Origin: a virus
Virus record (IMG/VR): IMGVR_UViG_3300036766_000416
Coordinates: 64,001-128,000 of that record
Length of the DNA: 64,000 nucleotides
Strand: one strand, 5' to 3'
Part shown: positions 5,839 through 59,464 of the stretch, piece by piece
How positions within the stretch are numbered: the first letter of the stretch is position 1
Layout of the letters: every line of letters starts with the position of its first letter
Translations under genes and position numbers: made by a program
Notes under the pieces: model-generated
The model's database searches: none
What the model was told of the DNA's origin: nothing
Seen by the model: only the letters and a program-made list of their open reading frames with translations

Positions 5839-6428
5839 ATGTTCACGATTTATCAAGTAACTAATACAGTCAATGGAAAGAGGTATGTAGGGTTTACAAG
5901 TCAGAATCCACCACTCAATCGATGGACCGATCATAAGCGCAATGCCAAAAATGGATCAATGACACACCTTCATTGTGCCATCAGGAAATATGGTTTCGAA
6001 TCGTTTCTTTGGAGTGTATTGGAGGAAGGTCTGGAAACTGAAGTTGGGCAAAATGCTAGGGAACCCTATTGGATTTCTGTTATAAACCCTGAATATAATA
6101 AAACGCGAGGTGGAGAAGGGAGAGTGGGTTTTACTCAAGGAGCCGCAGAACGAGAGAAAAGAAGCAAAACAATGAAAATAGTAATGTTAGGTAACAAAAA
6201 CGGAAGAGGTCGCAAAGGGGTTAAAAATAAGGAAGAGCAAAACAGAAAACACTCAGAATTCATGATGGGGAAACACCATCTCCTCAGACCCTTGAAAAAA
6301 GACGAACCTCTATGCTCGGAAAAAACACGGGACCACAAATCAAGGTTACCTGCTTGATTTGTAAAAGGACTGGAGGACTTCCTAATATGATTCGTTATCA
6401 TTTCGGAAATTGTAAGGAAAAGAAATAA
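5839..6428 (+). pseudogene. GIY-YIG (Seg-like) homing endonuclease, frameshifted near 6271-6273
   Basis: FTIYQVTN...RYVGFT GIY-YIG domain. Frame 0 stops at 6357, but the -1 frame from 6273 reads TPSPQTLEKRR...VTCLICKRTGGLPNMIRYHFGNCKEKK*, the C-terminal Cys motif of the 25064 paralog, and ends in TAA 6426-6428 overlapping the next ATG. Confidence 0.75.
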
Positions 6429-12400: not shown

Positions 12401-15400
12401 GGTTCTGGTATCGTCATCACCAATGATAAGGGATCAATCACCGTCGCAGCCACTGGTGGTGCGGCGATCGACCAATATGCCAGAGACAAGGCGAATGGTG
12501 CTGCACAGAATGCCTTCATCACCCTGAATGTCGCCGGACAGTCGGACATTGTAGCCGACTCCAATGTAGACACACTGATTCTCGTCGGATCGGGTATCAC
12601 CCTCACGACTGATGCAGGCACCGACACATTGACGATTCAGCACCCCGCGTCGGGCGTCACACCATCAGGTTATGGTGATGCGGCCACGGTACCTAAGTTT
12701 GTGGTGGACGCAAATGGGCATGTTACATCCGTCACCAATACAGCCATCGCCATCTCCGCGACACAAATTACTTCAGGAACCTTAGCGGTCGCACGAGGAG
12801 GTACAGGACAAACAGCCATCACGGTCAACGGCTCCTTATTGATTGGAAACACGGTCTCTGGTGGATTTGACGTCAATCCAATCACCCAGGGAACGAATAT
12901 CCTCATCACCAACGACAAAGGCTCAATCACGATTGCTTCTAGCGATGCTTTCGCACAAACTCAAGCGAATGCGGCCTTTGATCGGGCGAATGCGGCCTAC
13001 GCGAATGCGAATACCGCCATCTATACTGCAGCACAAATTCGCGCCAACATCAGCAATACCGCTCCGATTAGGTATGATGCCACAACCGGAATTGTGAGTC
13101 ATGCAGATTCGGGCGTTGTCGCCTCTGGTTACGGTGATGCCGCAACCATTCCCGTCTTTGTCGCCAATGCGACCGGGCACATTTCTTCTGTCACCAATAC
13201 AGCCATCGCCATCTCTGCGACACAAATCACTTCAGGCACCCTTGCGGTCGCTCGTGGAGGTACCGCACAAACCGCCATCAACGGAAACGGTTCACTATTG
13301 ATAGGTAACACCGTCAGCGGCGGCTACGATGTCAATACCCTCACTCAAGGAACCGGAATCGTCATCACCAATGACAAGGGATCAATCAGTATAGCAGCCA
13401 CCGGTGGTGCGAGTGCTAATGGATTTGGGATCATAGAGGTTGCTGGACAAGCTAATGTGGTCGCCGACCAAGCCAATGATACCCTGTTGCTCGTCGGATC
13501 GGGTATCACCCTCACGACTGATGCAGGCACCGACACATTGACGATTCAGCACCCTGCCTCTGGAGTCGTAGCATCTGGGTACGGTGATGCAGCGACAGTA
13601 CCTAAAGTAGTGGTGGATGCGAATGGACATTTAACGTCTGTGGTCAATACTTCCATAGCGATTTCAGCAACACAAATCACCTCAGGAACCTTGGCTGTGG
13701 TGCGTGGTGGTACTGGACAAACAGCAATCACTGTAAACGGTTCCCTGCTCATAGGTAACACAGTGTCGGGTGGGTTCGACGTCAATCCAATCACTCAGGG
13801 CACCAATATCACGGTCACGAATGATAAAGGTTCAATCACCATATCGTCTAGCGACGCTTTCGCCCAATCCCAAGCCAACGCAGCCTTTGATCGCGCCAAT
13901 GCCGCCTATGCTAATGCGAATACGGCGATTTATACCGCAGCACAAATTAGGGCTAACCTTAGCAACACCGCGCCAATAAATTATGATGCGACAACGGGTA
14001 TTGTGTCTCATGCGCTATCCGGCGTGACAGCAAGTGGTTATGGTGACGCCGCCACGGTAGCGAAGGTTGTAGTAGACTCCAACGGGCACGTCACTTCCGT
14101 AGTGAACACTGCGATAGCGATTTCCGCAACACAGATCACTTCAGGTACCCTTGCAGTAGCCAGAGGTGGTACCGGTCAAACAGCGATCACTGTCAATGGT
14201 TCCCTACTGATCGGAAACACAGTTTCGGGTGGATTTGACGTTAATACACTGACTCAGGGTACTGGTATCGTTATCACCAACGACAAGGGATCGATCACCA
14301 TAGAGGCCACTGGTGGTGCGGCGACCGATCAATTCGCAAGGGATACAGCCAATGGTGCCTTCGCAAAGGCCAATGGTGCCGCACAAAATGCGTTTGTTAC
14401 ACTCACCATTGCCGGTCAATCCGATGTGGTCGCCGATTCCAACGTCGATACACTGACCTTGGTGGCTGGTGCGGATGTTGTCTTGACGACTGATGCGGGC
14501 ACCGATACGATCACGTTTGCGACTTCACGTTATGCCAAGAACGCAGTCAACAATGAGATGGCGTTTATTTACTCGGACTATGCGGCTAATGGTGTCTATA
14601 CCTCCTGGTCCACACTTCACGCCGCTTATGTGGCCTCAGGTTCCCCAGTCTGTACGATAGGATTCTGGCAGCAGGCTCCATTCAACCCAGCGTATCTTGA
14701 TATTCCTGCAGGCGCCTGGGCCTTCGAGTTTGGTACACGATGGAAGGGGTTAGGTAGCTACAGCGATGGTACTAGCATCCGTTTCCTTGAGGGCGCTACA
14801 ATATCTGGGGTACAATTCTTTGAAACGATTTATATTCTATCTAATTCTGCTGGTGGTGTTCAGCAAATTGGAAGAACAACCGACGCCAATGGTGCCTTTA
14901 CAATTGTCAATCAACCTATTCTTCATCGCGCAGCTATCCAAGGTGGTAACTCATCACAAACAGTATTCCAGTCGATAGATACTTTAACAGAGATATGGTT
15001 GGGTGAAGAATGTGTTCTCTATGCCAATTGCGTGGGTCTAGGGGCCAATGCAAATACATTCTTTGTGAACTATGCCGGACCTAGGTCGGATATAGCAGCC
15101 AATTCTTTCGTATCCACCAATGCATCTGCCGTTCTCCAATACCGAAGATTTGATGCGAGAACGTCAACAATTAGTGCCACACAAGCATTTTTTGCTGGTA
15201 TCACTCGCACTGAAGATATACCAGAGCAAATAGGTACCACGGCCGCACGTCCTCCGGTGCCATCTAACGGCCACATGTATTATGATTCCACCATAGCGGT
15301 TCCAATCTGGTGGTATAACGGCGCCTGGAGACGCCTAGTGACTGCGAACATCCCAGAATCCACCAGCAACCTATACTTTACAGCGGCCCGTGTTCGCGCC

Positions 15401-17488
15401 AACATCAGCAACACTGCTCCAATCAATTATGACTCCACCACAGGCATAGTATCACACGCGACTTCAGGTGTCACCGCAACCGGGTACGGGGATGCAAACA
15501 CCATACCCGTAGTGGTCGTTGATAACAAAGGTCACTTGTCCTCTGTGACCAATACAGCCATCACATTCTCTGATGGGTCCGCCACATCTCCCTCTATTCC
15601 TCACCGTGGAGACCTTGATACTGGATTCTGGTTCCCTGCAGCCGATACGATTGCAGCAAGCACCAATGGTCTTGAAAGACTGCGAATCACGGATGCGGGT
15701 TACATTGGCATCGGCACCAATAACCCTGTAGCCGACATTGAATTGCTGGCCAATGCTCCAGCCGCCTACATTGTCGTGACACAATACAGCGGGGCCCCTG
15801 GAGACGCCACTGATCCTGAATTCACCACACAGGCAGCCAGAGGGACACCAGGTACCCCAGCGGCCGTTCAACAGAATGATACATTGTTTGTGTTCGGAGC
15901 AGCAGCCTACAATGGCTCTGCATTCACCCCGAACAAAGTCTACTTAGAGATGGCTGCAGCCGAGAATTGGACAGCGGCCAACAACGGCACACTCATAGGA
16001 TTCAATACGACAGCAAATAATTCTACCCTTGTTACGCGGAGGATGTTGATAGACGGAAACGGCAACATCGGTATTGCGAATAGCTCACCAAAGCACAAAT
16101 TATCCATTACGGGAAATCTTTGGGTACGCGATACTGTCGTACTCCAAGACGGATTGATCGCCAACGGGACTCTAGGTGTTGTGGGTTCTGTGCTGACATC
16201 CAATAGCGCGACACCTCGATGGACTGGGGCCTCAGCGAATGGACAATTGTTTATTGGCAACACTGTGAGTGGCGGCTATGACGTCAATACGTTGACACAA
16301 GGTTCTGGTATCGTTATCACCAACACAAAGGGTGCTATTGAGATTGCTGCCACTGGTGGAGCGGCGACCGATCAGTTTGCTAGAGATACAGCCAACGGTG
16401 CCTTTACAAAAGCCAACGGGGCTGTTCAAACGGGGTTCACGATTTACGCTGTCAGTGGTCAATCGGATATCGTACCGGATTCCAATACTGACACGATAAC
16501 TCTCGTGGGTTCAGGTATTACTCTGACGACTGATGCAGGCACCGATACACTGACGGTTCAGCACCCCGCCTCTGGTGTGACTGCAAGTGGCTATGGAGAT
16601 GCAGCCACAGTTCCTAAATTTGTTGTGGATGCAAATGGTCATGTCACAAGTGTCACGAATACGGCTATCGCAATTTCCGCTACAGCGATCACCAGTGGTA
16701 CCTTAGCGGTTGCCAGAGGAGGTACTGGTCAGACGGCCATTACCGTCAATGGTTCGTTGCTCATCGGCAACACAGTCTCCGGTGGCTTCGACGTCAACCC
16801 GATCACCGCCACAACTCCAATCGTCGTTACAAACGATAAAGGCTCTATCGCACTTACTCATGCGACCTCAGGTGTCGTAGCAACTGGTCATGGTGATGCC
16901 GCGACGGTGCCTAAGTTTATTGTAGATGACAAGGGGCACGTCACCTCGGTCACCAATACGACTATCGCCATTGCTGCATCAGCGATCACTTCAGGTGTCT
17001 TGATCCAAGCCCAAGGAGGCACAGGGTTCTCTGGTGCCACAGCGAACGGACAATTACTTATTGGAAATACAGTAAGTGGTGGATTTGATCGTGCCACGTT
17101 GACACAGGGCACCAATATCACGATCACGAACGCAAAGGGATCGATCACGATTGATTCTACGGGTGGTGCTGGCAGCAATGGATTTGGTATTGTCAGTGTC
17201 TCTGGACAATCCGACGTCGTTGCAGACCAAGCCAATGATACCCTGACCATAGTTGCGGGATCGGGAATCACAATCACAACGGCTGCTGCTCTGGATCGTG
17301 TCAACATATCAGGTCAACCAATAGGAAATACCGTAGTTGGAGATTCGGTGTTCTTTGAGAATGGTCAAACTGTTACGGGTAACTATACAATTACCACAGG
17401 CAAATCCGCGATTTCTGCTGGACCCATCACACTCAACCCAGATATTATCGTGACTGTTCCTGGGGGAAGTCGCTGGGTTATCGTATAA
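6428..17488 (+). CDS. Giant repeat-containing long tail fibre / adhesin (3686 aa)
   Basis: About 18 copies of an NGSLLIGNTVSGG.DVN..TQG..I..TNDKGSI module; C-terminal FFENGQTVTGNYTITTGKSAISAGPITL...VTVPGGSRWVIV motif common at the ends of T4-like fibre proteins. Confidence 0.8.
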   Translation: MPLDPIVVQIKGGPTKVITGPAGAATRLVELSDVDATPVANGDVLTYVSANGKFEFHPTADSSNAFGVVNVAGQNNVIATTPSDTLELIAGTGILVLTDNVNNSVTIVATGGSAFDQYARDVANGAYDQANAAYANANTAIYTAAQIRANISNTAPINYSATTGIISHADSGVTATTYGNTTYVPTVTVDARGHVTSITNTAITFPPSGVTSVAGKTGAVLLDTYDIAENTSSNLWFTAARVRSNISNTAPINYEPTTGVVSHADSGVVASGYGDAATVPKVVVDSKGHATSVTNTSIAISAVAITSGTLAVARGGTGQTAITVNGSLLIGNTVSGGFDVNPITQGAGILVTNDKGSITITANVTSATDQFARDQANAAYNQANNAYANANTAIYTAAQIRANISNTAPINYDPTAGVISHALSGVAASGYGDAATVAKVVVDSNGHVTSVVNTAIAISAAAITSGTLAVVRGGTGQTAITVNGSLLIGNTVSSGFDVNPITQGAGILITNDKGSITITANVTSATDQFARDQANAAFNQANTANVTGQAAFDKANGAIYTAAQIRANLSNTAPINYDATTGVISHALSGVTASGYGDAATVAKVVVDSNGHVTSVVNTAIAISATQITSGTLAVVRGGTAQTAINGNGSLLIGNTVSGGYDVNTLTQGTGIIITNDKGSITIEATGGAATDQYARDKANGAAQNAFVTINIAGQSDVVADSNVDTLILVAGTGILLTTDSPNDTITITATGGSATDQFARDTANGAFAKANGAAQNAFVTLNVAGQSDIVADSNTDTLTIVGSGITITTDAGTDTLTIQHPASGVVASGYGDAATVPKFVVDANGHVTSVTNTAIAISATQITSGTLTVARGGTGQTAITVNGSLLIGNTVSGGFDVNPITQGTNITVTNDKGSITISSSDAFAQSQANAAYDRANAAYANANTAIYTAAQIRANLSNTTPINYDATTGVISHALSGVAASGYGDAATVAKVVVDSNGHVTSVTNTAIAISATQITSGTLAVVRGGTGQTAITVNGSLLIGNTVSGGFDVNPITQGTNITVTNDKGSITISSSDAFAQSQANAAYDRANAAYANANTAIYTAAQIRANLSNTAPINYDATTGVISHAVSGVAASGYGDAATVPKVVVDVTGHVTSVVNTAIAISAAAITSGTLAVARGGTGQTTITVNGSLLIGNTVSGGFDVNPITQGTNITITNDKGSITIASSDAFAQSQANAAFDRANAAYANANTAIYTAAQIRANLSNTAPINYDATTGVISHAISGVTASGYGDAATVAKVVVDTFGHVTSVTNTAIAISAAAITSGTLAVARGGTAQTAINGNGSLLIGNTVSGGYDVNTLTQGTGIVITNDKGSITIAATGGSATDDYARAHANGAFDKANGAAQNAFITLNVAGQSDIVADSNVDTLILVGSGITLTTDAGTDTLTIQHPASGVVASGYGDASTVPKFVVDANGHVTSVTNTAIAISATQITSGTLAVARGGTGQTAITVNGSLLIGNTVSGGFDVNPITQGTNITVTNDKGSITISSSDAFAQSQANAAFDRANAAYANANTAIYTAAQIRANLSNTAPINYDATTGVISHALSGVTASGYGDADTVAKVVVDSNGHVTSVVNTAIAISATQITSGTLAVARGGTGQTAITVNGSLLIGNTVSGGFDVNPITQGTNITVTNDKGSIAISSSDAFAQAQANAAFARANAAYANANTAIYTAAQIRANLSNTAPINYDATTGVISHALSGVTASGYGDAATVAKVVVDSNGHVTSVVNTAIAISATQITSGTLAVVRGGTGQTAITVNGSLLIGNTVSGGFDVNPITQGTNITVTNDKGSITISSSDAFAQSQANAAFDRANAAYANANTAIYTAAQIRANLSNTAPINYDATTGVISHALSGVTASGYGDAATVAKVVVDSNGHVTSVVNTAIAISATQITSGTLAVVRGGTAQTAINGNGSLLIGNTVSGGYDVNTLTQGSGIVITNDKGSITVAATGGAAIDQYARDKANGAAQNAFITLNVAGQSDIVADSNVDTLILVGSGITLTTDAGTDTLTIQHPASGVTPSGYGDAATVPKFVVDANGHVTSVTNTAIAISATQITSGTLAVARGGTGQTAITVNGSLLIGNTVSGGFDVNPITQGTNILITNDKGSITIASSDAFAQTQANAAFDRANAAYANANTAIYTAAQIRANISNTAPIRYDATTGIVSHADSGVVASGYGDAATIPVFVANATGHISSVTNTAIAISATQITSGTLAVARGGTAQTAINGNGSLLIGNTVSGGYDVNTLTQGTGIVITNDKGSISIAATGGASANGFGIIEVAGQANVVADQANDTLLLVGSGITLTTDAGTDTLTIQHPASGVVASGYGDAATVPKVVVDANGHLTSVVNTSIAISATQITSGTLAVVRGGTGQTAITVNGSLLIGNTVSGGFDVNPITQGTNITVTNDKGSITISSSDAFAQSQANAAFDRANAAYANANTAIYTAAQIRANLSNTAPINYDATTGIVSHALSGVTASGYGDAATVAKVVVDSNGHVTSVVNTAIAISATQITSGTLAVARGGTGQTAITVNGSLLIGNTVSGGFDVNTLTQGTGIVITNDKGSITIEATGGAATDQFARDTANGAFAKANGAAQNAFVTLTIAGQSDVVADSNVDTLTLVAGADVVLTTDAGTDTITFATSRYAKNAVNNEMAFIYSDYAANGVYTSWSTLHAAYVASGSPVCTIGFWQQAPFNPAYLDIPAGAWAFEFGTRWKGLGSYSDGTSIRFLEGATISGVQFFETIYILSNSAGGVQQIGRTTDANGAFTIVNQPILHRAAIQGGNSSQTVFQSIDTLTEIWLGEECVLYANCVGLGANANTFFVNYAGPRSDIAANSFVSTNASAVLQYRRFDARTSTISATQAFFAGITRTEDIPEQIGTTAARPPVPSNGHMYYDSTIAVPIWWYNGAWRRLVTANIPESTSNLYFTAARVRANISNTAPINYDSTTGIVSHATSGVTATGYGDANTIPVVVVDNKGHLSSVTNTAITFSDGSATSPSIPHRGDLDTGFWFPAADTIAASTNGLERLRITDAGYIGIGTNNPVADIELLANAPAAYIVVTQYSGAPGDATDPEFTTQAARGTPGTPAAVQQNDTLFVFGAAAYNGSAFTPNKVYLEMAAAENWTAANNGTLIGFNTTANNSTLVTRRMLIDGNGNIGIANSSPKHKLSITGNLWVRDTVVLQDGLIANGTLGVVGSVLTSNSATPRWTGASANGQLFIGNTVSGGYDVNTLTQGSGIVITNTKGAIEIAATGGAATDQFARDTANGAFTKANGAVQTGFTIYAVSGQSDIVPDSNTDTITLVGSGITLTTDAGTDTLTVQHPASGVTASGYGDAATVPKFVVDANGHVTSVTNTAIAISATAITSGTLAVARGGTGQTAITVNGSLLIGNTVSGGFDVNPITATTPIVVTNDKGSIALTHATSGVVATGHGDAATVPKFIVDDKGHVTSVTNTTIAIAASAITSGVLIQAQGGTGFSGATANGQLLIGNTVSGGFDRATLTQGTNITITNAKGSITIDSTGGAGSNGFGIVSVSGQSDVVADQANDTLTIVAGSGITITTAAALDRVNISGQPIGNTVVGDSVFFENGQTVTGNYTITTGKSAISAGPITLNPDIIVTVPGGSRWVIV
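6820..17160 (+). repeat. Intragenic protein repeat array (~150-aa A unit interspersed with ~60-aa B unit)
   Basis: A unit: TAIYTAAQIRAN.SNTAPINYD...SGYGDAATV.KVVVD.NGHVTSV.NTAIAISA..ITSGTLAV.RGGT.QT..NGSLLIGNTV. B unit: AQNAF.T.N.AGQSD.VADSN.DTL.L.GSGIT.TTDAGTDTLTIQHPASG. Confidence 0.9.
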
Positions 17489-49963: not shown

Positions 49964-50623
49964 ATGAAAGAGTTTACCTACAATACATCGACACCCCCAA
50001 CCATCGTGCAGAAGAAGTATGACCCGCTACCTCTTTACAATGATAAGAATCCGATGCTCGCACAACGACAGGAGGCCATGGACCTCAATCCACTGCCTGT
50101 GGACCTCATCGAGACCTGTAACCGATTGCTGGCGACCATGAATCAGTATGGTGGCGTAGGTCTCGCTGCTCCTCAATGTGGGATACCCTTGAGGCTCTTT
50201 GTCATGACTGGTGGAATGGTGTGCATCAACCCTCGGATTCTCACAGCTTCTATTGAGACCCTACGCGAGAAAGAGGGGTGCCTCTCGTTTCCTGGACTCT
50301 ACCTACCTATTACACGGTCCAGGACCATTGAGGTCGAATACTTCAACGAGTTTGGTGTGCAGAAGCACGAGACATTTTCTGGTGCCACGGCGAAAGTCTT
50401 TCAACATGAGACCGATCACCTCAATGGCATTGTCTTTACGTCTCTGGTGGGAAACCTGACACTCCAGATGGCCAAGAAGAAAAAACAAAAGCTCTTCAAG
50501 CGCATGGAGCGCATTGTGGAGGTCAAGGAAATGCAGCGCAAGATGGCTGATCTGGTCAGCAAGAGCGCGATGGCCAAGGTGGCACCTCGTGCAGTTCAGG
50601 TTCAGTCAAACAGAGTGACATAG
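49964..50623 (+). CDS. def: Peptide deformylase
   Basis: GVGLAAPQ, EGCLSFP and QHETDHLNG (HExxH) motifs. Confidence 0.93.
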   Translation: MKEFTYNTSTPPTIVQKKYDPLPLYNDKNPMLAQRQEAMDLNPLPVDLIETCNRLLATMNQYGGVGLAAPQCGIPLRLFVMTGGMVCINPRILTASIETLREKEGCLSFPGLYLPITRSRTIEVEYFNEFGVQKHETFSGATAKVFQHETDHLNGIVFTSLVGNLTLQMAKKKKQKLFKRMERIVEVKEMQRKMADLVSKSAMAKVAPRAVQVQSNRVT

Positions 50624-50629
50624 GGTGGC

Positions 50630-51787
50630 ATGATGAAAAGTTGGCAATGTGGTTTCGAAATTGATGAACTGAAAACCTTGGAGGCCTTCTACGAGCCATA
50701 CAATCGCTATGCCCTGTCACCGTTCGGAAAATTTAAGAAGAATGACATCGCCACCAAGCTGGACAACAAGGCCTTCAACCAGGTCAACGACCGAGACGGG
50801 CACGTCGAGGCAGCTTGGGTGCGTGAAAGGTCAAAGGTACCCAGCAAGATCACGATGCACGGCAAAACCATCATTGGTGAGAAACTCAAGGGTGACGTGA
50901 CCCTTTCAAGACTCTGTGGTGACCCAGAGACCTTAGAGACCTCACTGATGCATGAGGGGTACACGATGGACAACTGCTGGCTCCTGTCCTACGGTGGGGA
51001 CACCGCGATCTGCCGGCTCGCTGAACGCCTGGGGTTCAAGAAAATTGGCTACAAGGTCACCTCGTTTGCAGAGATCATGGCGGTCTATTTTCGGGACAGT
51101 GACCTCAGTTTGGCACCCAGGAACCACCCAGTGGTGAACAAGGCTGACTTGGTGGGTATGGCAAAGATTGCGAGCATAGGGTCCACGTTGCCCTTGTTGA
51201 TTCTGCAGAAAATCCAACTCAAAGGTCTCCAATACACCAATCACTACAGCAACTACAACACCAAGAATGCCTGGTCTGCATTGGCCCTTCGAGGTTACTC
51301 AGCGGACGCCGCGTTCATCACGAAGCCCGCTGAGATGAATGACAAGTGGCATGAGGCCCACACACACGAACACTTCGAACTTCAAGATACCCCACTCTAC
51401 GCACAGTTCCCCGAAGTCAGAAAACTACTTACGTTTTTAGACGGGGAGTGCCACCGAGTCAGATTTATGCGTCTCGCCCCTGGTGGGGGAGAACTTACTC
51501 GTCATACAGACCAGGTAGACCCCGACGCTGGCAACTCACTAGGCGCGCTGGCTCGCTTGCACTTCCCTCTCAAAACCAACAAGGACGTCCTATTCAGCAC
51601 ATGGAATGGTGACGACCAAGAGGAACGCTATCACTTTGGATTCGGTGAGTGTTGGGTCATTGATACTCGGAAACCTCATATGGCTGTCAATGGGGGCACA
51701 GAGGAACGGATACACCTCGTGGTTGACGTGATTGTGACACCTAAAATCGAACGCATGATCACCGAAGGACTCTCTATTCGAGCCTAA
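50630..51787 (+). CDS. Fusion of a GNAT-like N-terminal domain and an AspH-type 2OG-Fe(II) oxygenase
   Basis: C-terminus RVRFMRL.PGG.L..HTD...RLHFPL.TN...GECW.IDTRKPH.A.NGG.E.RIHLVVD matches the aspartyl/asparaginyl beta-hydroxylase fold (HxD...H). N-terminal A.RLGF.KIG.KV resembles the GNAT C-terminal motif (weaker). Confidence 0.7.
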   Translation: MMKSWQCGFEIDELKTLEAFYEPYNRYALSPFGKFKKNDIATKLDNKAFNQVNDRDGHVEAAWVRERSKVPSKITMHGKTIIGEKLKGDVTLSRLCGDPETLETSLMHEGYTMDNCWLLSYGGDTAICRLAERLGFKKIGYKVTSFAEIMAVYFRDSDLSLAPRNHPVVNKADLVGMAKIASIGSTLPLLILQKIQLKGLQYTNHYSNYNTKNAWSALALRGYSADAAFITKPAEMNDKWHEAHTHEHFELQDTPLYAQFPEVRKLLTFLDGECHRVRFMRLAPGGGELTRHTDQVDPDAGNSLGALARLHFPLKTNKDVLFSTWNGDDQEERYHFGFGECWVIDTRKPHMAVNGGTEERIHLVVDVIVTPKIERMITEGLSIRA

Positions 51788-51805
51788 TCAACCACTTAGC
51801 ACCCC

Positions 51806-51834
51806 TTGACACCTGGACCTGGTTGTGATACCCT
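51806..51834 (+). promoter_or_regulatory. Sigma70-type promoter
   Basis: TTGACA (51806-11), 17-nt spacer, TGA-TACCCT (51829-34); intergenic. Confidence 0.6.
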
Positions 51835-51873
51835 TAGTATGACAGTTGAAGAAACACCAGGAGCCTTTATATT

Positions 51874-54800
51874 ATGAGTACCCTCAGCAAACTTACAAAG
51901 ATTGTCAGACACAATTACAAAAAGTCTCTGGCCAGGGAACCCAAGGTTCTTCTCTATGTCTATCAGATGATGGACCACAAACCCCTGAATTCTGCCGACG
52001 GGATATACAGTCTCAAGGTGGGGGACCATTGGTGTATCTTCAGGGACATTTATGCGGCCGCCAAAAGGCGAATTCGAGAGGGGTTGGGGTGCCACAAAGC
52101 TGCCCTGGATGACGGTCGAATCAAGATTCTCGCAGTATTCGATGTGACTGTGTATGCCAAGCACCACAAGAAATATAAAAAACATGGCAAGATCGACCTC
52201 AATGTTCACAAAGTTATTCCAGGTCACTATCGAGATGACAATTTCCATGTCAACGATATTGGTGAAGTTCTAGCTCTCATCACCAAAGAAATCAACCGCT
52301 ATTCGACAGCACAACAGAAGGACACCCTCAAACTCAGCCCTCTCCAACACGATCTGCTCAGAGATTCCATTGTGGCCTACAAGGCAGGGAAACTCCGACA
52401 GTTGTTCGCCGCGGCAGCACGAATCGGAAAAACCTGTATGGCTCTGGCTCTCATGCGGGAACTGAACCTTCCGTTTATGGTGTTCGCCAGCTACGTCACG
52501 ACTTCACTCAATTCGATGATTCAGGATGCCGCAAAGTTCGCGCAATTCCACAACATCCTTGTGGTCGATACGCGAAAAAATGACTACCAACAACTCATTA
52601 GTGAAGGTCTTGCGGCGGGTAAGCAAATCGTGGCGCTCCTGAGTATGTGCAATGGTGATGATCGACAGGAACGCATCGACTTTCTCTTCAAGCTGAACCT
52701 TCTTCAAACGTTGGTGGTCGACGAGGCAGACTATGGGTCACATCAACCGACGCAAACCGAACCACTTCAAGCAGCGGTCTCTGTAAACGAATTGGTGATC
52801 CTGATGTCAGGGACCAATCCAGAACGGTCTATGAGTACCTGGAAAATCGACTTCCAGCGACACATCAGTAATCAAGACATGCAAGTGGCCAGAGGGCTGT
52901 ACCTCAGAGGTGAGTACAAACAGTCACCGAGCAAGATGCTCTTCTTCAAGAAGGACTACAGCATTCTCGGCGCGGTTGTTCCGGCTCGCTACTACCAAAT
53001 GACCCTCAAGAAACTTCAGGACCTCGCCAAACTCCAGCACCCAGAGGCCTTCACGGATGATGAACTGTGGGGTTCGTGGATCAAGTGGATGAAGAACCCA
53101 GCGAAGGCCAGTGGCCCACTGTCCATGTTCTTTGAGTCAGTCTTTGAGGGCAAGTGGAACCTCGAAGAAGTCAACACCAGGTATCAGTTTAGTATCACCC
53201 CAGGTGGACAACAAGTGGTGATGGTCTGGCTGCCTTCCTGCACCGAGACCGAGAAGATGAACTTGTTCGCTGAGATTGCTCAAAAAAGTCTCAAAAACTG
53301 GGACGTGATTCCGCTCTCTGGTGGAGTGACGACCCCCGATGGCACCAGGATGACAGGCGCGAAGGCTGAACGCCATGTGAATGAACGTATTGCCTCAGCC
53401 AAATTCAATGGCAACCGCAACGTCATGATCATCTCAGCGATCATGGGTGCCCGCTCATTCGGGATCAAGGAAATCACTGAGGTCTATCTGTGCTACGATG
53501 AGGGAGCGGTGGGTTCGACGATTCAGAAAATGTCACGAGCCCTCACACCGTTCTTCGACGGGACTGAGAAACTTGCTCGCATTGTCTCGTGCAGCTTCGA
53601 CCCTAACCGTGACGAGAAATTCGACCCACTGGTCCTTGAGTGTGCCAAGCACACCAAGGCTCTGTATGGGATACCCCTGGTCAAGGCCATCAAACTCGTG
53701 CTACGCACGTCAGACTTCTTTGTGATGACCCAGGATGGACCGAAACCCTATGAAATCTCCGCGTACCTTGAGGGTGTGTTGGCCCGCAAGAGTACCGCGC
53801 GGGTGTTCGGGAAAATTTTCAAGCTGGAAAACATTCCCACTGACCTGTTGGAGTCTATCGCCAGGGTCTCTGGAAAAATCGGCAAGACCACGAAACAAGA
53901 AGTTGCTCAACGAGGCAAGACGCTCGCTGAGGTCCTCAAGAAATCACCAGGAACCAAGAATACTCCGGCTCAAGACAAAATCTGGAAAGACATCCACAAC
54001 GGCCTGGTCTACATCGCGTCCAACATCGATTGGATCATGTGCTTCGGTCGCCGTGGGGCCTCATTGGTGGAGTGCCTGGACATTCTCGATAAGGAAACTC
54101 AGAGGACCCGGGATGGCCTCGCTGAGGATTATGGTATCCCCTATGCGGACCTCGCACGATTGCTTCGGTGCGACGTGAGTAGCCATGACCTCCTGGAGTT
54201 GGAGTCCTACGCGGGCACTGGGACCGCTAGCAACCGCACAAAATTTTCTATCGACCCAGTGGTGATGGAGATGTTGGCGATCATTCCTGAGAAGGATTGG
54301 CAGTCGTCTACCAAGACCTTTGCGGACCTGGCGATGGCAGGAGGTCAGTTTATTGTTGGGCTGGTGCGAATGCTGAGAACCTACGGACACTCAGACGAGA
54401 ACATCAGGAGTCGTGTGTTCGGATTCGACACCTGCAAGCACAGAATTCTCGCTGCTAAATACCACTGTCCAGACCTCATCGGAACCTTTGAGGTCAAAAC
54501 AATCGAGGAGTTGATGAAGATGACCCAGAAATTTGACGTGATCGTTGGGAACCCACCGTTTCAACAAAATAGCAAAATCGCAAAAGACAGCGGCACCAAT
54601 AAACTCTGGAATAAATTTACAAAACTCGCTATCGATCTTTCACCGGGGGGATATGTGACATACATCACCCCCCAATCATGGTTGGTGGGAAACAGGACAT
54701 TCGACCTGCTCACCAGTAAGAAATCAATAAGTGTTAATACCGAAATCTCTCATTATTTTCAGGGTGTTAATAGTTCTTTCTGCTCGTGGGTTCTGTCAAA

Positions 54801-55404
54801 CAAAGACAAGGACGACGCAGAAACTGGGAAGATATTTGTGAACGGCAAACCACTTGACAGTTCCCTAGGTTTGATACCCAAAGACAGATCACACAACGGT
54901 CTTTCTTTAGTTGCTAAGTTTTTTTCAAAGAAAGATAAATTTTCATTCGACCGACTTTATAATCATGGATCAACAGCCATTAAAAACGACCCAACACTAC
55001 TAGGCAAAAAAAGTCAACGATACCAACACCCAATTACATTCACCGCCTCAAAACAAGGCATTGCGTGGAGTCGCATACCAAGCCCAGTGCAGGGGAAAAA
55101 GAAAGTGATTATATTTCGTAGCGCCCCTATAAAACCCACGTATTCAACTAATGGTGTTGGTGCTGACGCCTTCTTTAAGTTAGTGACCTCGAAAGAGGAA
55201 GGAAAGAATATGGTTGAAATTTTCAACTCAAAACTCTACTCATACATTTTCAAAACCACACTCTATAGTGGATTTTTCTCTATGTCAGTGTTTAACCACA
55301 TTCCCTATCTCGATTACACCAGGTCCTGGAGTGACGCTGAAATCTATGAGCACTTCAACATCACCAAGAAAGAGCAAGCACACATTGAAGCCTACCTTGC
55401 GTGA
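51874..55404 (+). CDS. Nuclease-SF2 helicase-N6-adenine methyltransferase fusion (Type ISP/IIG-like R-M enzyme)
   Basis: AAARIGKT (motif I), LVVDEAD (motif II), MSGT (motif III); FADLAMAGGQF SAM site and VIVGNPPF catalytic motif; N-terminal Y.Y...KVG...RI.E GIY-YIG/T5orf172-like segment (weaker). Confidence 0.75.
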   Translation: MSTLSKLTKIVRHNYKKSLAREPKVLLYVYQMMDHKPLNSADGIYSLKVGDHWCIFRDIYAAAKRRIREGLGCHKAALDDGRIKILAVFDVTVYAKHHKKYKKHGKIDLNVHKVIPGHYRDDNFHVNDIGEVLALITKEINRYSTAQQKDTLKLSPLQHDLLRDSIVAYKAGKLRQLFAAAARIGKTCMALALMRELNLPFMVFASYVTTSLNSMIQDAAKFAQFHNILVVDTRKNDYQQLISEGLAAGKQIVALLSMCNGDDRQERIDFLFKLNLLQTLVVDEADYGSHQPTQTEPLQAAVSVNELVILMSGTNPERSMSTWKIDFQRHISNQDMQVARGLYLRGEYKQSPSKMLFFKKDYSILGAVVPARYYQMTLKKLQDLAKLQHPEAFTDDELWGSWIKWMKNPAKASGPLSMFFESVFEGKWNLEEVNTRYQFSITPGGQQVVMVWLPSCTETEKMNLFAEIAQKSLKNWDVIPLSGGVTTPDGTRMTGAKAERHVNERIASAKFNGNRNVMIISAIMGARSFGIKEITEVYLCYDEGAVGSTIQKMSRALTPFFDGTEKLARIVSCSFDPNRDEKFDPLVLECAKHTKALYGIPLVKAIKLVLRTSDFFVMTQDGPKPYEISAYLEGVLARKSTARVFGKIFKLENIPTDLLESIARVSGKIGKTTKQEVAQRGKTLAEVLKKSPGTKNTPAQDKIWKDIHNGLVYIASNIDWIMCFGRRGASLVECLDILDKETQRTRDGLAEDYGIPYADLARLLRCDVSSHDLLELESYAGTGTASNRTKFSIDPVVMEMLAIIPEKDWQSSTKTFADLAMAGGQFIVGLVRMLRTYGHSDENIRSRVFGFDTCKHRILAAKYHCPDLIGTFEVKTIEELMKMTQKFDVIVGNPPFQQNSKIAKDSGTNKLWNKFTKLAIDLSPGGYVTYITPQSWLVGNRTFDLLTSKKSISVNTEISHYFQGVNSSFCSWVLSNKDKDDAETGKIFVNGKPLDSSLGLIPKDRSHNGLSLVAKFFSKKDKFSFDRLYNHGSTAIKNDPTLLGKKSQRYQHPITFTASKQGIAWSRIPSPVQGKKKVIIFRSAPIKPTYSTNGVGADAFFKLVTSKEEGKNMVEIFNSKLYSYIFKTTLYSGFFSMSVFNHIPYLDYTRSWSDAEIYEHFNITKKEQAHIEAYLA

Positions 55405-55825
55405 AGTGATTGAACACGTTCGCAACAGGTCCTACATGTCAGGGGTCCAACGGGATGCCCTGCGCGTCAAGGCCACTGGTGAAATCTTCACACCGACACC
55501 ACTGGTCCAGGAACTTCTGGACCAACTCCCCACTGAGGTGTTCAGTGAGCCCTCCGAGACCTTCCTAGACCCTTCCTGTGGTGACGGACAGTTTCTCGGC
55601 GAGGTCCTGATCCGCAAAATGGAGCATGGTAGCACGTTCGCTGAGGCCCTCAACACGATCTATGGTGTCGAACTGATGCCCGACAACAGGGCCCTCTGTG
55701 TTGAACGGCTCCTGTGTGGTCACGAAGAATACCGGGACCTCGTGGAGTCGCACATCGTCTGCGCTGATGCCTTGAGCTATGATTACTCGTTCGGTAAACC
55801 TGTGGGTCTGGAGAACCTGTGCTGA
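55385..55825 (+). CDS. N6-adenine methyltransferase-like protein, SAM-binding half only
   Basis: RVKATGEIFTPTPLV (motif X), FLDPSCGDGQFL (motif I), IYGVEL (motif II), DAL (motif III); ends without NPPY. Start uncertain (TTG 55385/55397 or GTG 55406); the 55214 upstream extension overlaps the previous gene. Confidence 0.7.
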   Translation: MKPTLREVIEHVRNRSYMSGVQRDALRVKATGEIFTPTPLVQELLDQLPTEVFSEPSETFLDPSCGDGQFLGEVLIRKMEHGSTFAEALNTIYGVELMPDNRALCVERLLCGHEEYRDLVESHIVCADALSYDYSFGKPVGLENLC

Positions 55826-56394
55826 TCATTGGGAACCCTCCATTCGGCAAGAGGGCCTCTCTGGCGATAGAGTTTTTCAATCGAGCCACCCGGCTCTCCG
55901 ATGTGATTGCGTTCGTGGTGCCAGTACAGTTCAGGAAGTGGTCGGTTCAGTCCAAACTCAACCCGGAAATGCGACTGGTCCTAGACAAGGATGTTCCTGA
56001 ACACACCTTCGACGGGATACGCTGCTGTTTGCAAATCTGGAAACGGGGAGGGTCGGGTCCCGATCTACGACTGAAAGCGGCACCCACGATCACCCACAAA
56101 GACTTTTTCATGTGGCAGTATAATAATACAGAAAAGGCCAAGCGAGTGTTCGGCATCACGTTCGATTTCGCGGTACCCCGTCAAGGGTACGCAGATTACA
56201 CCAGGCGTGAGACAGACTACAGGGCCTGTGAACTGACAACCCAATGGATACTCTTTCGAGCACCCAATCCAGTGGTCTTGTCGAGACTCAAGCAATTAGA
56301 TTTTGAGGCACTTGCAAAGAAGAATACGACGATCCCTGGGTTCGGCAAAGCAGACGTGGTGAGATTGTATCATGAGGTGTATGGTGACAACTGA
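55819..56394 (+). CDS. N6-adenine methyltransferase-like protein, catalytic NPPF half
   Basis: GGAG SD before GTG; IIGNPPFG...A..FF..A......IAF.VP..F...; no SAM-binding motif I. Confidence 0.65.
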   Translation: MLIIGNPPFGKRASLAIEFFNRATRLSDVIAFVVPVQFRKWSVQSKLNPEMRLVLDKDVPEHTFDGIRCCLQIWKRGGSGPDLRLKAAPTITHKDFFMWQYNNTEKAKRVFGITFDFAVPRQGYADYTRRETDYRACELTTQWILFRAPNPVVLSRLKQLDFEALAKKNTTIPGFGKADVVRLYHEVYGDN

Positions 56395-57301
56395 ACGAGA
56401 CATCGATCACGCGCTAGACCTGATTACCCCGGTCCAGTTCGACCAGGGTCTCTATTGGAAACGCGACGACCACTTCCAACCTTTCGGGCCCCTACATGTC
56501 AATGGCGGAAAAGTCCGACAGGCGATCATGGTCTTTCGGTCCAAGCTGGAAGAGCTTCGTGACCCTGAGTGCTACGACAATGGCGTGGTCACCGCCGCCT
56601 CAGTGTACTCCCCACAATCCGCCAACATCGCCAAGGTCGCGCAGCACTATGGGGTGAAGTGTATCTCGACAGTAGGGGGAACCACTGAAGCAGGACTCCG
56701 TAAGCACCATATGATGCGGCTCACGCGGCACTACGGGTCCGAGATTCGTATTGTCGCAGGGCACGGCATGACCGCGGTGATCCACAGCCGGATGCACGAC
56801 ATTGCGAAGCAGCTTCGGTACCTCCCAATCGAAATGGGTGAACTGATGGAGGAGAACCCCACTGCAATCTTTGAGTCAACCGCTCGCCAAGTCCAGAACC
56901 TACCCGATGACCTGGACAACCTCATCGTGCCCACTGGTGTTGCCATCCAGTTGACGGGTATCCTGCGGGGCCTCAGGGAGTTTGACAAAAAAGTTGGACG
57001 GGTCGTGTGTGTCTGTGTGGGACCGACCAGAGAGAAGCAACTGAGCCACTACCTCCGTGACATTTACAAGGAAGAGGTCTCGCGGTACCACAGTGTCGAG
57101 ATGGTTGCCCACAAGGCTCCGTATTCGAAACCCTACGAGGTCAAGGTCAACGGTGAGCATATCGATGACCTCTATGAGGGCAAGGCCTTTGACTGGATGA
57201 CCAAGAACGTGGATTACCGTAACCAGAAAACCTGCTTCTGGGTCGTCGGCAAGAGGCCTAGAGTGACCGATGTTGATACCATCATCCAGGACATGCTATG
57301 A
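56381..57301 (+). CDS. PLP-dependent enzyme, ACC deaminase / D-cysteine desulfhydrase family (fold type II)
   Basis: TPVQ...WKRDD...NGGKVR (Schiff-base Lys), IVPTG...TGILRG, IDDLYEGKAF; start could be 56372, 56381 or 56384. Confidence 0.8.
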   Translation: MVTTERDIDHALDLITPVQFDQGLYWKRDDHFQPFGPLHVNGGKVRQAIMVFRSKLEELRDPECYDNGVVTAASVYSPQSANIAKVAQHYGVKCISTVGGTTEAGLRKHHMMRLTRHYGSEIRIVAGHGMTAVIHSRMHDIAKQLRYLPIEMGELMEENPTAIFESTARQVQNLPDDLDNLIVPTGVAIQLTGILRGLREFDKKVGRVVCVCVGPTREKQLSHYLRDIYKEEVSRYHSVEMVAHKAPYSKPYEVKVNGEHIDDLYEGKAFDWMTKNVDYRNQKTCFWVVGKRPRVTDVDTIIQDML

Positions 57302-58878
57302 ACTACTTCTATGAACGGGGCACCGAACTACTCGAATCACCCGTCAACAAAACGTTCGACGAACTGTTGGTCATGAGCACCGAGGAATTTCGACAATGGG
57401 TCATCGACCTTCGCAAGACCGTCGTGTACCTCTGGGATACCAAGGGACAGCCGCCACGGGTGGGCTACGACGAAGCAGGGATCATCAAACAGTTTCGGGA
57501 ACTAGAGCCCTTCATCACCGAGACCTTCGAGCAGCTTGACGAGTGCACCGGTGAACGGAACGTGATCCGCAACACCTCGAACCTTGGGAACGCGGTGAAC
57601 CAGTGGTTTCCCACGATGATGAAGGTGCGTATCAACTACACGAAGGACGTCGACGCAGGGAAATCTATCTACGATTTTTTCGCTAAGGACTCTTTGCTCG
57701 ATACGTTCGTGACCTATGCGTCAAGACATTTTCACAGAGACTCGTTCTACAACTTCTCGCTGACCTTGCAGGCCTCTGACACCACACGGTACGGTCAGGT
57801 CCCTGTGGCGACAACGGGTCTGGAGTGGGTCCGACAATTCGAGACTGATGGGTACCGCAACCGTGGACAGTGGGATTACTGGCTCGAAACGATAGCTGCC
57901 ACGAAAACTTATACGGGCTACAACGAAGTTCTCAAAGACCGTCAGTACCTCCAGGTGTCTCAGCAAGAATTGGAGACCCTAGGTGACCTGGTACCCGCCC
58001 GATGCACAACCAACATCAACAGGTCCAAAGGTGACCTCTGTGCCATCAGGGTCTATGAGACCGGGCAGAAGGTGTTTCCAGTAGGCCTCAAGGCATTCCG
58101 TATGAGCTTCTGCCAGTACGCGGTCCAATGGCCTCCATTGACAGCCAAGCATATCATTGAACGGTTTACAAACGAGTGGAAATCTGAACCCACAATATAT
58201 TGTTGGGACCCTAGTGCTGGGTGGGGCGGGCGATTGCTCGGTGCTTTGGCAGTCGAGGATAAGCGTCACATCACCTATCTGGCCAATGACCCCAACAGCG
58301 ATCATACAACAACTCTAGGGCGGACTAAGTATCACGAGGTATACGACTTCTATTGCCAGCACGTTCCTAAAGGTGGAATTTTTGGTGCGGAGCACACTGA
58401 ATTCAAATTTTGGCAACTGGGGTCGGAGCTGATGCACCGTGACCCCGGCTTTTGTGAATATAAAGGAAAAATATCTCTGGTGTTTACCAGCCCACCATAT
58501 TTTTGCAAAGAAGCCTACTCGGAGGACCCCTCACAGTCCTACAAGAAATTCTCGCAGTACGATCAGTGGCGCGATGGGTTTCTCAAGAGGACCTTGGAGA
58601 CTGCTGTTGAGTGGTTGCGACCCGGTGGGTATCTGGCTTGGAATATAGCGAACGCCACATTTAGCGGAGATAGATTGCCCTTAGAAAATGATTCCAATGT
58701 TATCCTAAAATCGCTTGGTATGGAGTACGTGCAGGTGCTGAAAATGTCCCTTGCTCAAACCCCGGGCGGCAATAGACTAGACAAAGTTACAGGACTTCCA
58801 AAAACAGAGCATTCCTGCAAAGTGGGAGGGTTGTGGTTGAAATGGGAACCTATTCTAATATGGCGCAAACCGAAATAA
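57298..58878 (+). CDS. SAM-dependent DNA amino-methyltransferase-fold protein (SPPY type)
   Basis: WDPSAGWGGRLLGA (motif I), VFTSPPYFCKE.YS (motif IV), LRPGG; ATGA overlap with the PLP gene; long N-terminal region of unknown function. Confidence 0.75.
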   Translation: MNYFYERGTELLESPVNKTFDELLVMSTEEFRQWVIDLRKTVVYLWDTKGQPPRVGYDEAGIIKQFRELEPFITETFEQLDECTGERNVIRNTSNLGNAVNQWFPTMMKVRINYTKDVDAGKSIYDFFAKDSLLDTFVTYASRHFHRDSFYNFSLTLQASDTTRYGQVPVATTGLEWVRQFETDGYRNRGQWDYWLETIAATKTYTGYNEVLKDRQYLQVSQQELETLGDLVPARCTTNINRSKGDLCAIRVYETGQKVFPVGLKAFRMSFCQYAVQWPPLTAKHIIERFTNEWKSEPTIYCWDPSAGWGGRLLGALAVEDKRHITYLANDPNSDHTTTLGRTKYHEVYDFYCQHVPKGGIFGAEHTEFKFWQLGSELMHRDPGFCEYKGKISLVFTSPPYFCKEAYSEDPSQSYKKFSQYDQWRDGFLKRTLETAVEWLRPGGYLAWNIANATFSGDRLPLENDSNVILKSLGMEYVQVLKMSLAQTPGGNRLDKVTGLPKTEHSCKVGGLWLKWEPILIWRKPK

Positions 58879-59464
58879 CTTCAGTACATTTCCATCCTTT
58901 ATGATGCCTCCTTTCCCCGCGAGATGTTGACCACATGTGGCTAACATTCAGCTTATTGGTTCTACAGAACCCCTTCAGGTTTGTTATTTGAAAAGTACTC
59001 CCGGCAGGTGATGTCACCTCCCAGTGTTTATCTCTCTTTCCGCGTATAACTTCAGCAACTTTCCTAACATGTTCTGGGGATTGTGGACCCGTTTTTATTC
59101 CTCTATTCCAGGGAATTCTTCTCTTGAACCTCGCAATAGTCTCTGGCGAGTGTCTGAAACCAAGTTGTCCCTCTCCGCCGTAGGGCATATTATAGCCCTT
59201 GCCAGTAGAGTAGTGTGAATCATAAAGACGAATAAAATAACCCTCCATAATGTTCAACACAAAATCTTTATCAGGTGACTCATACTCAATAGTCCAATCG
59301 AATCCAGACGCACCATATTTCTTGATGGCTTGATGAAACACAACCCCCTGAGCTTTTGACTTTGCTTCCCATAGATGGATATACTTTCGTTTAGGCCAAG
59401 CAGAGTCGTACCCGATATAGACTTTTCCGTTGGTCTTGTTTGTCGCTTTATAAATGACAGGCAT
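58850..59464 (-). CDS. GIY-YIG homing endonuclease (only minus-strand gene)
   Basis: VIYKATNKTNGKVYIG, E..FI..Y.S....GYN, HSPETI NUMOD3-like motif, C-terminal SPAG...NLKGFCR.N.L...HM like the 43366 gene. Confidence 0.85.
   Translation of the reverse strand: MPVIYKATNKTNGKVYIGYDSAWPKRKYIHLWEAKSKAQGVVFHQAIKKYGASGFDWTIEYESPDKDFVLNIMEGYFIRLYDSHYSTGKGYNMPYGGEGQLGFRHSPETIARFKRRIPWNRGIKTGPQSPEHVRKVAEVIRGKRDKHWEVTSPAGSTFQITNLKGFCRTNKLNVSHMWSTSRGERRHHKGWKCTEVISVCAILE

Follow-up and report, generated by a model that had tools for sequence, protein, structure and literature searches.

We have analysed a 64,000-nucleotide stretch of viral DNA (hereafter the window), which spans positions 64001 to 128000 of IMG/VR record IMGVR_UViG_3300036766_000416, a complete virus sequence of 178,609 bp with terminal repeats. 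The source virus is an uncultured T4-like myovirus. A short way downstream of its genes for gp47- and gp46-like recombination nucleases are three genes that probably constitute one module building an undescribed, larger-than-methyl DNA mark. The three genes are:

50630..51787, + strand: fusion of a GNAT-like domain to an AspH-type 2-oxoglutarate (2OG)-Fe(II) oxygenase, 385 aa (PF05118; hhalign)
56372..57301, + strand: fold-type-II pyridoxal 5'-phosphate (PLP) enzyme, 309 aa, assigned by sequence to the ViI gp226 / phrog_3650 family (PALP, E 1.4e-12)
57298..58878, + strand: SPPY protein, 526 aa, with motif I DPSAGWGGR at residue 304 and motif IV TSPPY at residue 398

These, and all other genes listed by a first-pass annotation of the same DNA, were recovered where it had placed them.

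The C-terminal half of the 385-aa protein corresponds to Asp_Arg_Hydrox (PF05118, E 1.4e-12, 48.1 bits against a cut-off of 22.6). Its HxD...H iron triad (H292/D294/H350) and the 2OG-binding R360 are invariant in 20 homologues, and the nearest solved structure is the L-proline cis-4-hydroxylase 4p7w (E 3.9e-5). Hydroxylases of free amino acids come nearest to the oxygenase, which is of the AspH/amino-acid hydroxylase type and not of the TET/JBP type. The first ~200 aa share homology with a free 150-aa protein of related viruses (hhalign 94.9%, E 4e-8), whose PDB matches are weak and comprise GNAT acetyltransferases only (best E 1.4e-3).

The putative Schiff-base lysine of the PLP enzyme, Lys47, lies within a GGKVR motif. 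The enzyme matched the phrog_3650 profile at E 2.3e-38 and phrog_7093 at E 1e-4, and BLASTP aligned its residues 16-296 with a gp226-type protein of a Kuttervirus (ViI-like) at E 6e-27, with the Schiff-base lysine conserved. As judged from sequence, it is a member of the ViI gp226 family of DNA-linked amino-acid decarboxylases; ViI gp226 and M6 gp52 are proven decarboxylases of serine/glycine moieties on thymine in DNA (PMC8989533). We have also considered, and rejected, an assignment as 1-aminocyclopropane-1-carboxylate (ACC) deaminase / D-cysteine desulfhydrase (TIGR01275), which scored 18.5 bits against an NCBIfam cut-off of 289.4. The first-pass annotation had judged an ACC-deaminase reading to fit less well, in agreement with our finding that the enzyme is far nearer to the gp226 family than to ACC deaminases.

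Residues ~295-526 of the SPPY protein form a class I S-adenosylmethionine (SAM)-dependent amino-methyltransferase-type domain, with motifs I and IV invariant in 28 homologues. In the structure model (predicted local distance difference test score, pLDDT, 79) the C-terminal domain resembles class I methyltransferases. A Foldseek search with the whole model returned generic class I methyltransferases only, and in structure the catalytic domain came closest to the tRNA N2-methylguanosine (m2G) methyltransferases aTrm11, TrmN and Trm14 (VIA-align Z 14.6-15.3). At the sequence level, the N6_N4_Mtase model (PF01555) matched at E 1.7e-5, with 25.3 bits against a cut-off of 26.7 and over profile positions 1-61 only. 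When the complete genome was searched, the SPPY frame reached 26.3 bits with this model, or 26.9 bits with neighbouring hits in the frame included (cut-off 26.7). The PADLOC MTase_II model matched at E 3.6e-9.

The N-terminal ~290 aa of the SPPY protein (window 57298-58170) are strongly conserved and, when folded alone, gave a model with a pLDDT of 83. Compared with the PDB, these N-terminal 291 residues had no Foldseek match at E<=0.001 and a best VIA-align Z of 4.1, which does not in itself prove a new fold. In one related locus (L088) this domain is encoded as a separate 203-aa open reading frame (ORF). Some family members are ~760 aa long owing to a ~240-aa C-terminal extension (P0008, P0011, P0013, P0014 and P0022; L094 5866-8208); the extension was recognised neither by Pfam nor by our slot-protein profiles (five P proteins searched) nor by the ESM Atlas (P0008 only).

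The SPPY gene is a conserved core gene with 218 relatives in IMG/VR. We have fetched 80 of these for locus comparison, their proteins being 56-61% identical to SPPY over the full length. The gene order gp47, gp46, peptide deformylase (PDF), a variable slot, SPPY, CobT, CobS is kept in the relatives, and the content of the slot between PDF and SPPY could be counted over 71 loci that cover it. A GNAT-like part was present in 60 of the 71 slots, being fused in front of the 2OG oxygenase in 35 (one of which has a free copy as well) and free only in 25. The variants observed were the GNAT-like/2OG fusion, a lone 2OG enzyme of 200 aa followed by the 150-aa protein, and the 150-aa protein alone. A PLP-type gene occupied 13 of the 71 slots, either of the type found in the window (the window itself and L082-L084) or of a second PLP-like family. 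A recount of the slot content with hidden Markov models gave the same picture. The co-occurrence of the three enzymes suggested by the first-pass annotation was thus seen as one conserved slot shared by SPPY, PLP and GNAT-like/2OG genes in ~90 related loci. That annotation had also described the PLP and SPPY genes as translationally coupled. The SPPY ATG does overlap the PLP stop codon as ATGA, and this overlap is incidental: among relatives the PLP gene takes differing positions in the slot or is missing. A complex prediction for SPPY and the PLP enzyme, run without controls, scored 0.00 and speaks neither for nor against a complex.

The second PLP-like family, seen at 12 loci, comprises proteins of 245-275 aa with an RDD..YGSK.R motif. 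It was recognised by neither Pfam nor PDB searches, and its direct profile comparison with the PLP family of the window was not significant (hhalign probability 0.3%). We link it to PALP because both profiles match one and the same fusion protein (P0143, see below). Where this family is present and the oxygenase is missing, it is always followed by a 339-aa protein of no assigned family. Other slot genes of the relatives encode a YunG-like protein, a vWA protein of 200 aa and a SLOG protein of YspA type, which in L067 is joined to DUF4326; these additional genes lie at L083 4413-6767, L067 8169-9992 and L070 5172-6191. A scan of 185,579 prokaryote genomes yielded only four relatives, all in viral-looking contigs of metagenome-assembled genomes (MAGs), and added no cellular context. 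One MAG contig (L096 5842-7550) has its SPPY homologue split into five successive frame fragments, as in a decayed copy or a poor assembly.

Searching the SPPY family profile against 1.84 billion cluster representatives gave 177 matches at E<=1e-30, among which several natural fusions were found. In P0044 (829 aa) a PLP domain of the same subfamily as in the window (E 6e-92) comes after SPPY, and in P0083 (796 aa) the order is reversed, with the PLP domain, again of the window subfamily (E 3e-32), preceding SPPY. P0143 joins the SPPY core to a PALP domain that is also matched by the second PLP-like family, and in P0067 and P0091 the 150-aa GNAT-like protein (E 2e-42) is attached behind the SPPY core. 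As for their surroundings, P0083 lies on a mobile island between two ParB_N proteins, P0067 adjoins a ParB-N6_N4 methylase and a PhyH-type oxygenase, and P0044 stands downstream of an integrase gene. A minimal system was found at L087, where a PLP-SPPY fusion is flanked by ParB_N proteins only.

Related gene pairs are also carried by three cultured phages, namely Vincenzo and AlanGrant of Mycobacterium, in both as genes 1 and 2, and Pam4. In Mycobacterium phage Vincenzo (L091 1-2275), gene 1 encodes ParB plus a CPPY methylase-like domain and overlaps the PLP gene 2, whose product matches the PLP family of the window at E 2e-26; the two are annotated as "ParB-like partition protein" and "carboxylate deaminase," respectively. 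The 829-aa gp70 of Pseudanabaena phage Pam4 (L092 3801-6290) fuses methylase pieces with a PLP domain and is annotated as "PLP-dependent enzyme" despite its methylase motifs. An extended motif IV, (S/C)PPY..E.Y, is common to SPPY and the methylase-like parts linked to PLP domains, including those of Vincenzo and Pam4. Both in the present virus and in Twort-like phages, the genes belong to the replication/recombination module. Together with the shared slot, the fusions of SPPY to PLP domains in both orders, of SPPY to GNAT and of GNAT to 2OG support the functional link among these enzymes that the first-pass annotation had proposed.

We have then searched the complete genome for the enzymes of thymidine hypermodification. 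At E<=1, there was no match to the amino-acid:DNA transferase (AADT, aGPT-Pplase2, PF18724), the 5-hydroxymethyldeoxyuridine (5-hmdU) DNA kinase (HMUD2, PF18747; other P-loop kinase families were not searched), a ThyA homologue (PF00303) or TET/JBP (PF12851). ThyX is present. The lack of a 5-hmdU kinase and of an amino-acid transferase, reported earlier for the window, therefore extends to the whole genome in these profile searches, and we reject the classical thymidine hypermodification route for lack of AADT, HMUD2 kinase, ThyA and TET/JBP. A SAM decarboxylase gene (speD) was likewise sought in the phage genome and was not found.

The PLP, oxygenase and GNAT-like partners of SPPY are all three of amino-acid-handling enzyme types. 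Since the genome is devoid of the known routes of amino-acid attachment and the minimal systems consist of a methylase-like part, a PLP part and ParB, SAM would be the one amino-acid donor available. DNA is the favoured substrate because of the ParB and DNA-methylase neighbours and of the PF01555 and PADLOC MTase_II matches. A precedent for such chemistry is provided by microcin C, where MccD, which has a methyltransferase fold, uses SAM as the donor of an aminocarboxypropyl group and the PLP domain of MccE, a protein that also has a GNAT domain, performs the decarboxylation (PMC10491745). This precedent, and SAM being the sole donor available, are the reasons for which we favour aminocarboxypropyl transfer. 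By analogy with MccD/MccE, it is possible, at somewhat under an even chance in our estimation, that SPPY takes the aminocarboxypropyl group from SAM and attaches it to an exocyclic amine of a DNA base, that the PLP enzyme decarboxylates it and that the oxygenase and GNAT-like proteins tailor the product.

In such a scheme, the SPPY enzyme would bind SAM and its (S)PPY pocket would present an exocyclic amine, namely the N6 of adenine or the N4 of cytosine and, less likely, the N2 of guanine. The 3-amino-3-carboxypropyl end of SAM would be transferred instead of the methyl group, with release of methylthioadenosine. Through a Schiff base to the free alpha-amine of this added group, the PLP enzyme would next remove CO2, leaving an aminopropyl side chain, which the AspH-type oxygenase could hydroxylate; in related phages, the free GNAT partners could acetylate the amine. 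The resulting mark would shield the phage DNA from host nucleases. The transferred group, the order of the steps, the DNA substrate and the protective role are what we infer for the module. The wider proposition, that a widespread phage enzyme family of methyltransferase fold adds the amino-acid end of SAM to the amine of A or C in DNA and that PLP, GNAT and AspH partners then generate N-aminopropyl-type bases in a combinatorial manner, is offered with more reserve, as a doubtful generalisation.

The module shares with the thymidine hypermodification systems of ViI, M6 and PaMx11 (PLP enzymes gp226 and gp52; acetyltransferase gp48; PMC8989533) a PLP enzyme, here a gp226 homologue, and a layout in which a core installing enzyme is combined with interchangeable tailoring enzymes (PLP, acetyltransferase) that vary by phage. 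Unlike these systems, it has no 5-hmdU precursor, DNA kinase or amino-acid:DNA transferase; the installer would be a SAM-dependent (S)PPY protein acting on an exocyclic amine and not on the pyrimidine C5, and an AspH-type oxygenase is an additional partner. With MccD/MccE (PMC10491745) it has in common the combination of a SAM enzyme of methyltransferase fold with PLP and GNAT partners, some of them fused. The acceptor in microcin C is, however, the phosphoramidate of a peptidyl-nucleotide and not a nucleobase in a polymer, and the PLP enzyme of the module is of fold type II, the likeness being one of enzyme types with no sequence homology claimed.

Orphan phage N6A/N4C methyltransferases (PF01555) and ParB-methyltransferase fusions resemble SPPY in motif I, in the SPPY motif and in the borderline PF01555/MTase_II matches, as well as in context, the SPPY gene lying among replication genes and related modules having ParB_N neighbours. 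SPPY differs from the orphan enzymes in its 290-aa N-terminal domain without known fold, in the unusual motif I DPSxGWGGR and in its constant association or fusion with PLP, GNAT and 2OG partners, the motif IV (S/C)PPY..E.Y being shared with PLP-linked relatives. Two systems are precedents for phage DNA marks larger than methyl. In Synechococcus phage S-B43, whose CmoA/CmoX/CmoY pathway makes 5-carboxymethylcytosine (PMC12783734), CmoX combines a methyltransferase fold with a SAM-derived group other than methyl, and Mom (PMC13219725) is a GNAT protein responsible for a Gly-tRNA-dependent modification at N6 of adenine. Unlike in CmoX and Mom, the target atom and the donor used by the module would be others. 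In literature searches we came across no account of a DNA pathway pairing a methyltransferase with a PLP enzyme, of aminocarboxypropyl or aminopropyl DNA bases, or of aminoalkylated A or C in phage DNA. To these comparisons the window adds the evidence of fusion and fission between GNAT-like and 2OG parts, two alternative PLP families in one slot, and the recognition of nearby adenine methylases as an unrelated insertion.

A number of observations weigh against aminocarboxypropyl transfer by SPPY. Enzymes with (S/D/N)PPY motifs are overwhelmingly plain methyltransferases, and no residue-level feature was found in SPPY that separates aminocarboxypropyl from methyl transfer. Gene order is kept in T4-like genomes anyway, so that adjacency by itself is weak evidence. 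The PLP partner is missing from most SPPY family members, as the slot count showed, and 6 of the 71 slots contain no accessory gene. In the fused GNAT-like domain the acetyl-CoA loop (Q/R-x-x-G-x-G/A) is absent, a gap standing opposite the QGSGNA of the free 150-aa family in the hhalign comparison. The first-pass annotation had named this domain GNAT-like and had the fusion protein acylate the base. The homology to the free GNAT-like family upholds the name, and acylation by the fused copy is doubtful because the loop has been lost. Several of these points would suit the view that SPPY is an ordinary orphan N4-methylcytosine (m4C) or N6-methyladenine (m6A) DNA methyltransferase serving anti-restriction, with partners that are helpers handling SAM or by-products, or unrelated slot genes. 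The classical motifs I and IV, the PF01555 and PADLOC matches, the six slots in which SPPY is alone and a setting among typical auxiliary genes (PDF, CobS, CobT) agree with it as well. We regard plain methylation as the main and a serious rival, though somewhat less likely than aminocarboxypropyl transfer, since it leaves unexplained why PLP, GNAT and 2OG parts have repeatedly become joined to SPPY, in either arrangement and across unrelated lineages, as well as the kinship of the PLP domain with a family acting on DNA-bound amino acids, and the GNAT-like part of so many slots. A PLP enzyme requires a primary amine adjacent to the carbon acted upon, and a methylated amine offers it no handle.

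Retaining the aminocarboxypropyl chemistry and changing its substrate to RNA (phage or host tRNA, rRNA or mRNA) is an alternative that we judge unlikely. It would accommodate the tRNA m2G methyltransferases, which are not DNA methylases, as top structural matches of SPPY, and the adjoining PDF, a translation-linked gene; both tRNA and rRNA, but not DNA, are known to carry aminocarboxypropyl groups (PMC10491745). The structural preference is, however, slight (Z 15.3 for Trm11/TrmN versus 13-14 for generic Rossmann methyltransferases), the sequence matches are to DNA methylase models, other lineages have ParB_N proteins and DNA methylases as partners, the characterised PLP relatives act on DNA, and the genes reside in replication/recombination modules here and in Twort-like phages. 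About as little room is left for the PLP enzyme acting first, on SAM itself, whether to supply SPPY with decarboxy-SAM or another derivative or, with SPPY, to destroy SAM as an anti-defence measure; this too we hold improbable. An equivalent order of events (route b, MccE/MccD) is not excluded for microcin C (PMC10491745), it resembles CmoA feeding CmoX, and cyanophage DNA modification dependent on carboxy-SAM (Cx-SAM) exemplifies phage use of altered SAM donors (PMC12783734). In addition, the phage itself encodes no speD, and the fusions would suit channelling of a cofactor as well as work on DNA. Known members of the PLP family nevertheless act on polymer-bound amino acids and not on SAM, and destroying SAM would need neither the invariant SPPY pocket nor the conserved 290-aa N-terminal domain nor ParB partners. 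A divergent thymidine pathway based on 5-hydroxymethyluracil (5hmU), finally, is very improbable. The homology of the PLP enzyme to ViI gp226 and the presence of a 2OG oxygenase are compatible with it, certain 2OG enzymes of phages being able to convert T to 5hmU (PMC13229309). Against it stand the complete genome without AADT, HMUD2 kinase, ThyA-type hydroxymethylase and TET/JBP and with ThyX, and the AspH/amino-acid hydroxylase type of the oxygenase.

Should aminocarboxypropyl transfer to DNA by SPPY hold true, it would be the first SAM-derived aminoalkyl hypermodification of DNA and a second, thymidine-independent route to phage DNA decorated with amino acids. A previously unrecognised class of SAM-built DNA bases would then occur in abundant freshwater T4-like phages and, through the related gene pairs, in mycobacteriophages, cyanophages and mobile islands. 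The annotation of phage "orphan DNA methylases" would change, odd sequencing and restriction behaviour of the DNA of carriers would be explained, and a new counter-defence chemistry, with matching type IV nucleases in the hosts, would be implied. The enzymes could also serve for site-specific amino-functionalisation of DNA. The related pairs of the three cultured phages make the proposal testable.

Between the fusion gene and the PLP gene, the window contains a block of adenine methylase genes:

51874..55404, + strand: DEAD-like helicase plus Eco57I-type N6-adenine methyltransferase, 1176 aa (PF07669, E 2.4e-13)
55436..55825, + strand: small N6-adenine methylase, N-terminal piece, with motif X and motif I FLDPSCGDGQF (phrog_4376, E 4e-25)
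55819..56394, + strand: small N6-adenine methylase, C-terminal piece, from IGNPPFGKR onward in another frame (PADLOC MTase_II, E 2e-28)

In the 1176-aa protein the helicase motif VVDEAD lies at residue 283 and the methylase motif NPPF at residue 893. Its only relatives, all weak, were found in cyanophages (S-CAM7, ACG-2014f) and Tenacibaculum phages. Neither this gene nor the methylase halves occur in any of the 80 related loci, and over 83 related loci the 1176-aa gene is likewise missing throughout. L082, the closest relative (~90% identical), has in place of the block an intact gene for a 276-aa methylase with NPPF, in front of the PLP gene. The first-pass annotation had listed these further adenine methyltransferase genes alongside the enzymes of its candidate pathway. 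We do not count them in the module: the helicase-methylase and the split methylase are an insertion unrelated to the module and confined to this phage. The N-terminal methylase piece stops at a TGA (55823-55825), six codons short of motif IV, and has no counterpart in L082; the C-terminal piece is 71% identical to the 276-aa methylase of L082. This is suggestive of a junction formed by recombination, of a frameshift mutation, of recoding or of an error in the assembly. A canonical N6_N4 DNA methylase is encoded elsewhere in the genome, in a 435-aa frame (G000:C1:148949-150064, PF01555 E 5.9e-31).

The neighbours of the module comprise, besides the gp47/gp46-like nucleases, PDF, CobT- and CobS-like genes. 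The product of the CobT-like gene has only ~32% identity to those of cyanomyoviruses, the nearest cultured relatives, and megablast of the module region against cultured phages gave no match. The module is bordered by:

49964..50623, + strand: peptide deformylase (PDF; PF01327, E 6.6e-36), the upstream border of the slot, kept in synteny
58850..59464, - strand: GIY-YIG-type homing endonuclease (matches to phrog_314, phrog_7168 and phrog_5123)

The GIY-YIG and SPPY genes converge and overlap over the last 29 bases of the latter; the former was seen in only 3 of the 80 related loci. Far upstream, the window also holds a plus-strand ORF of 3686 codons (6428-17488).

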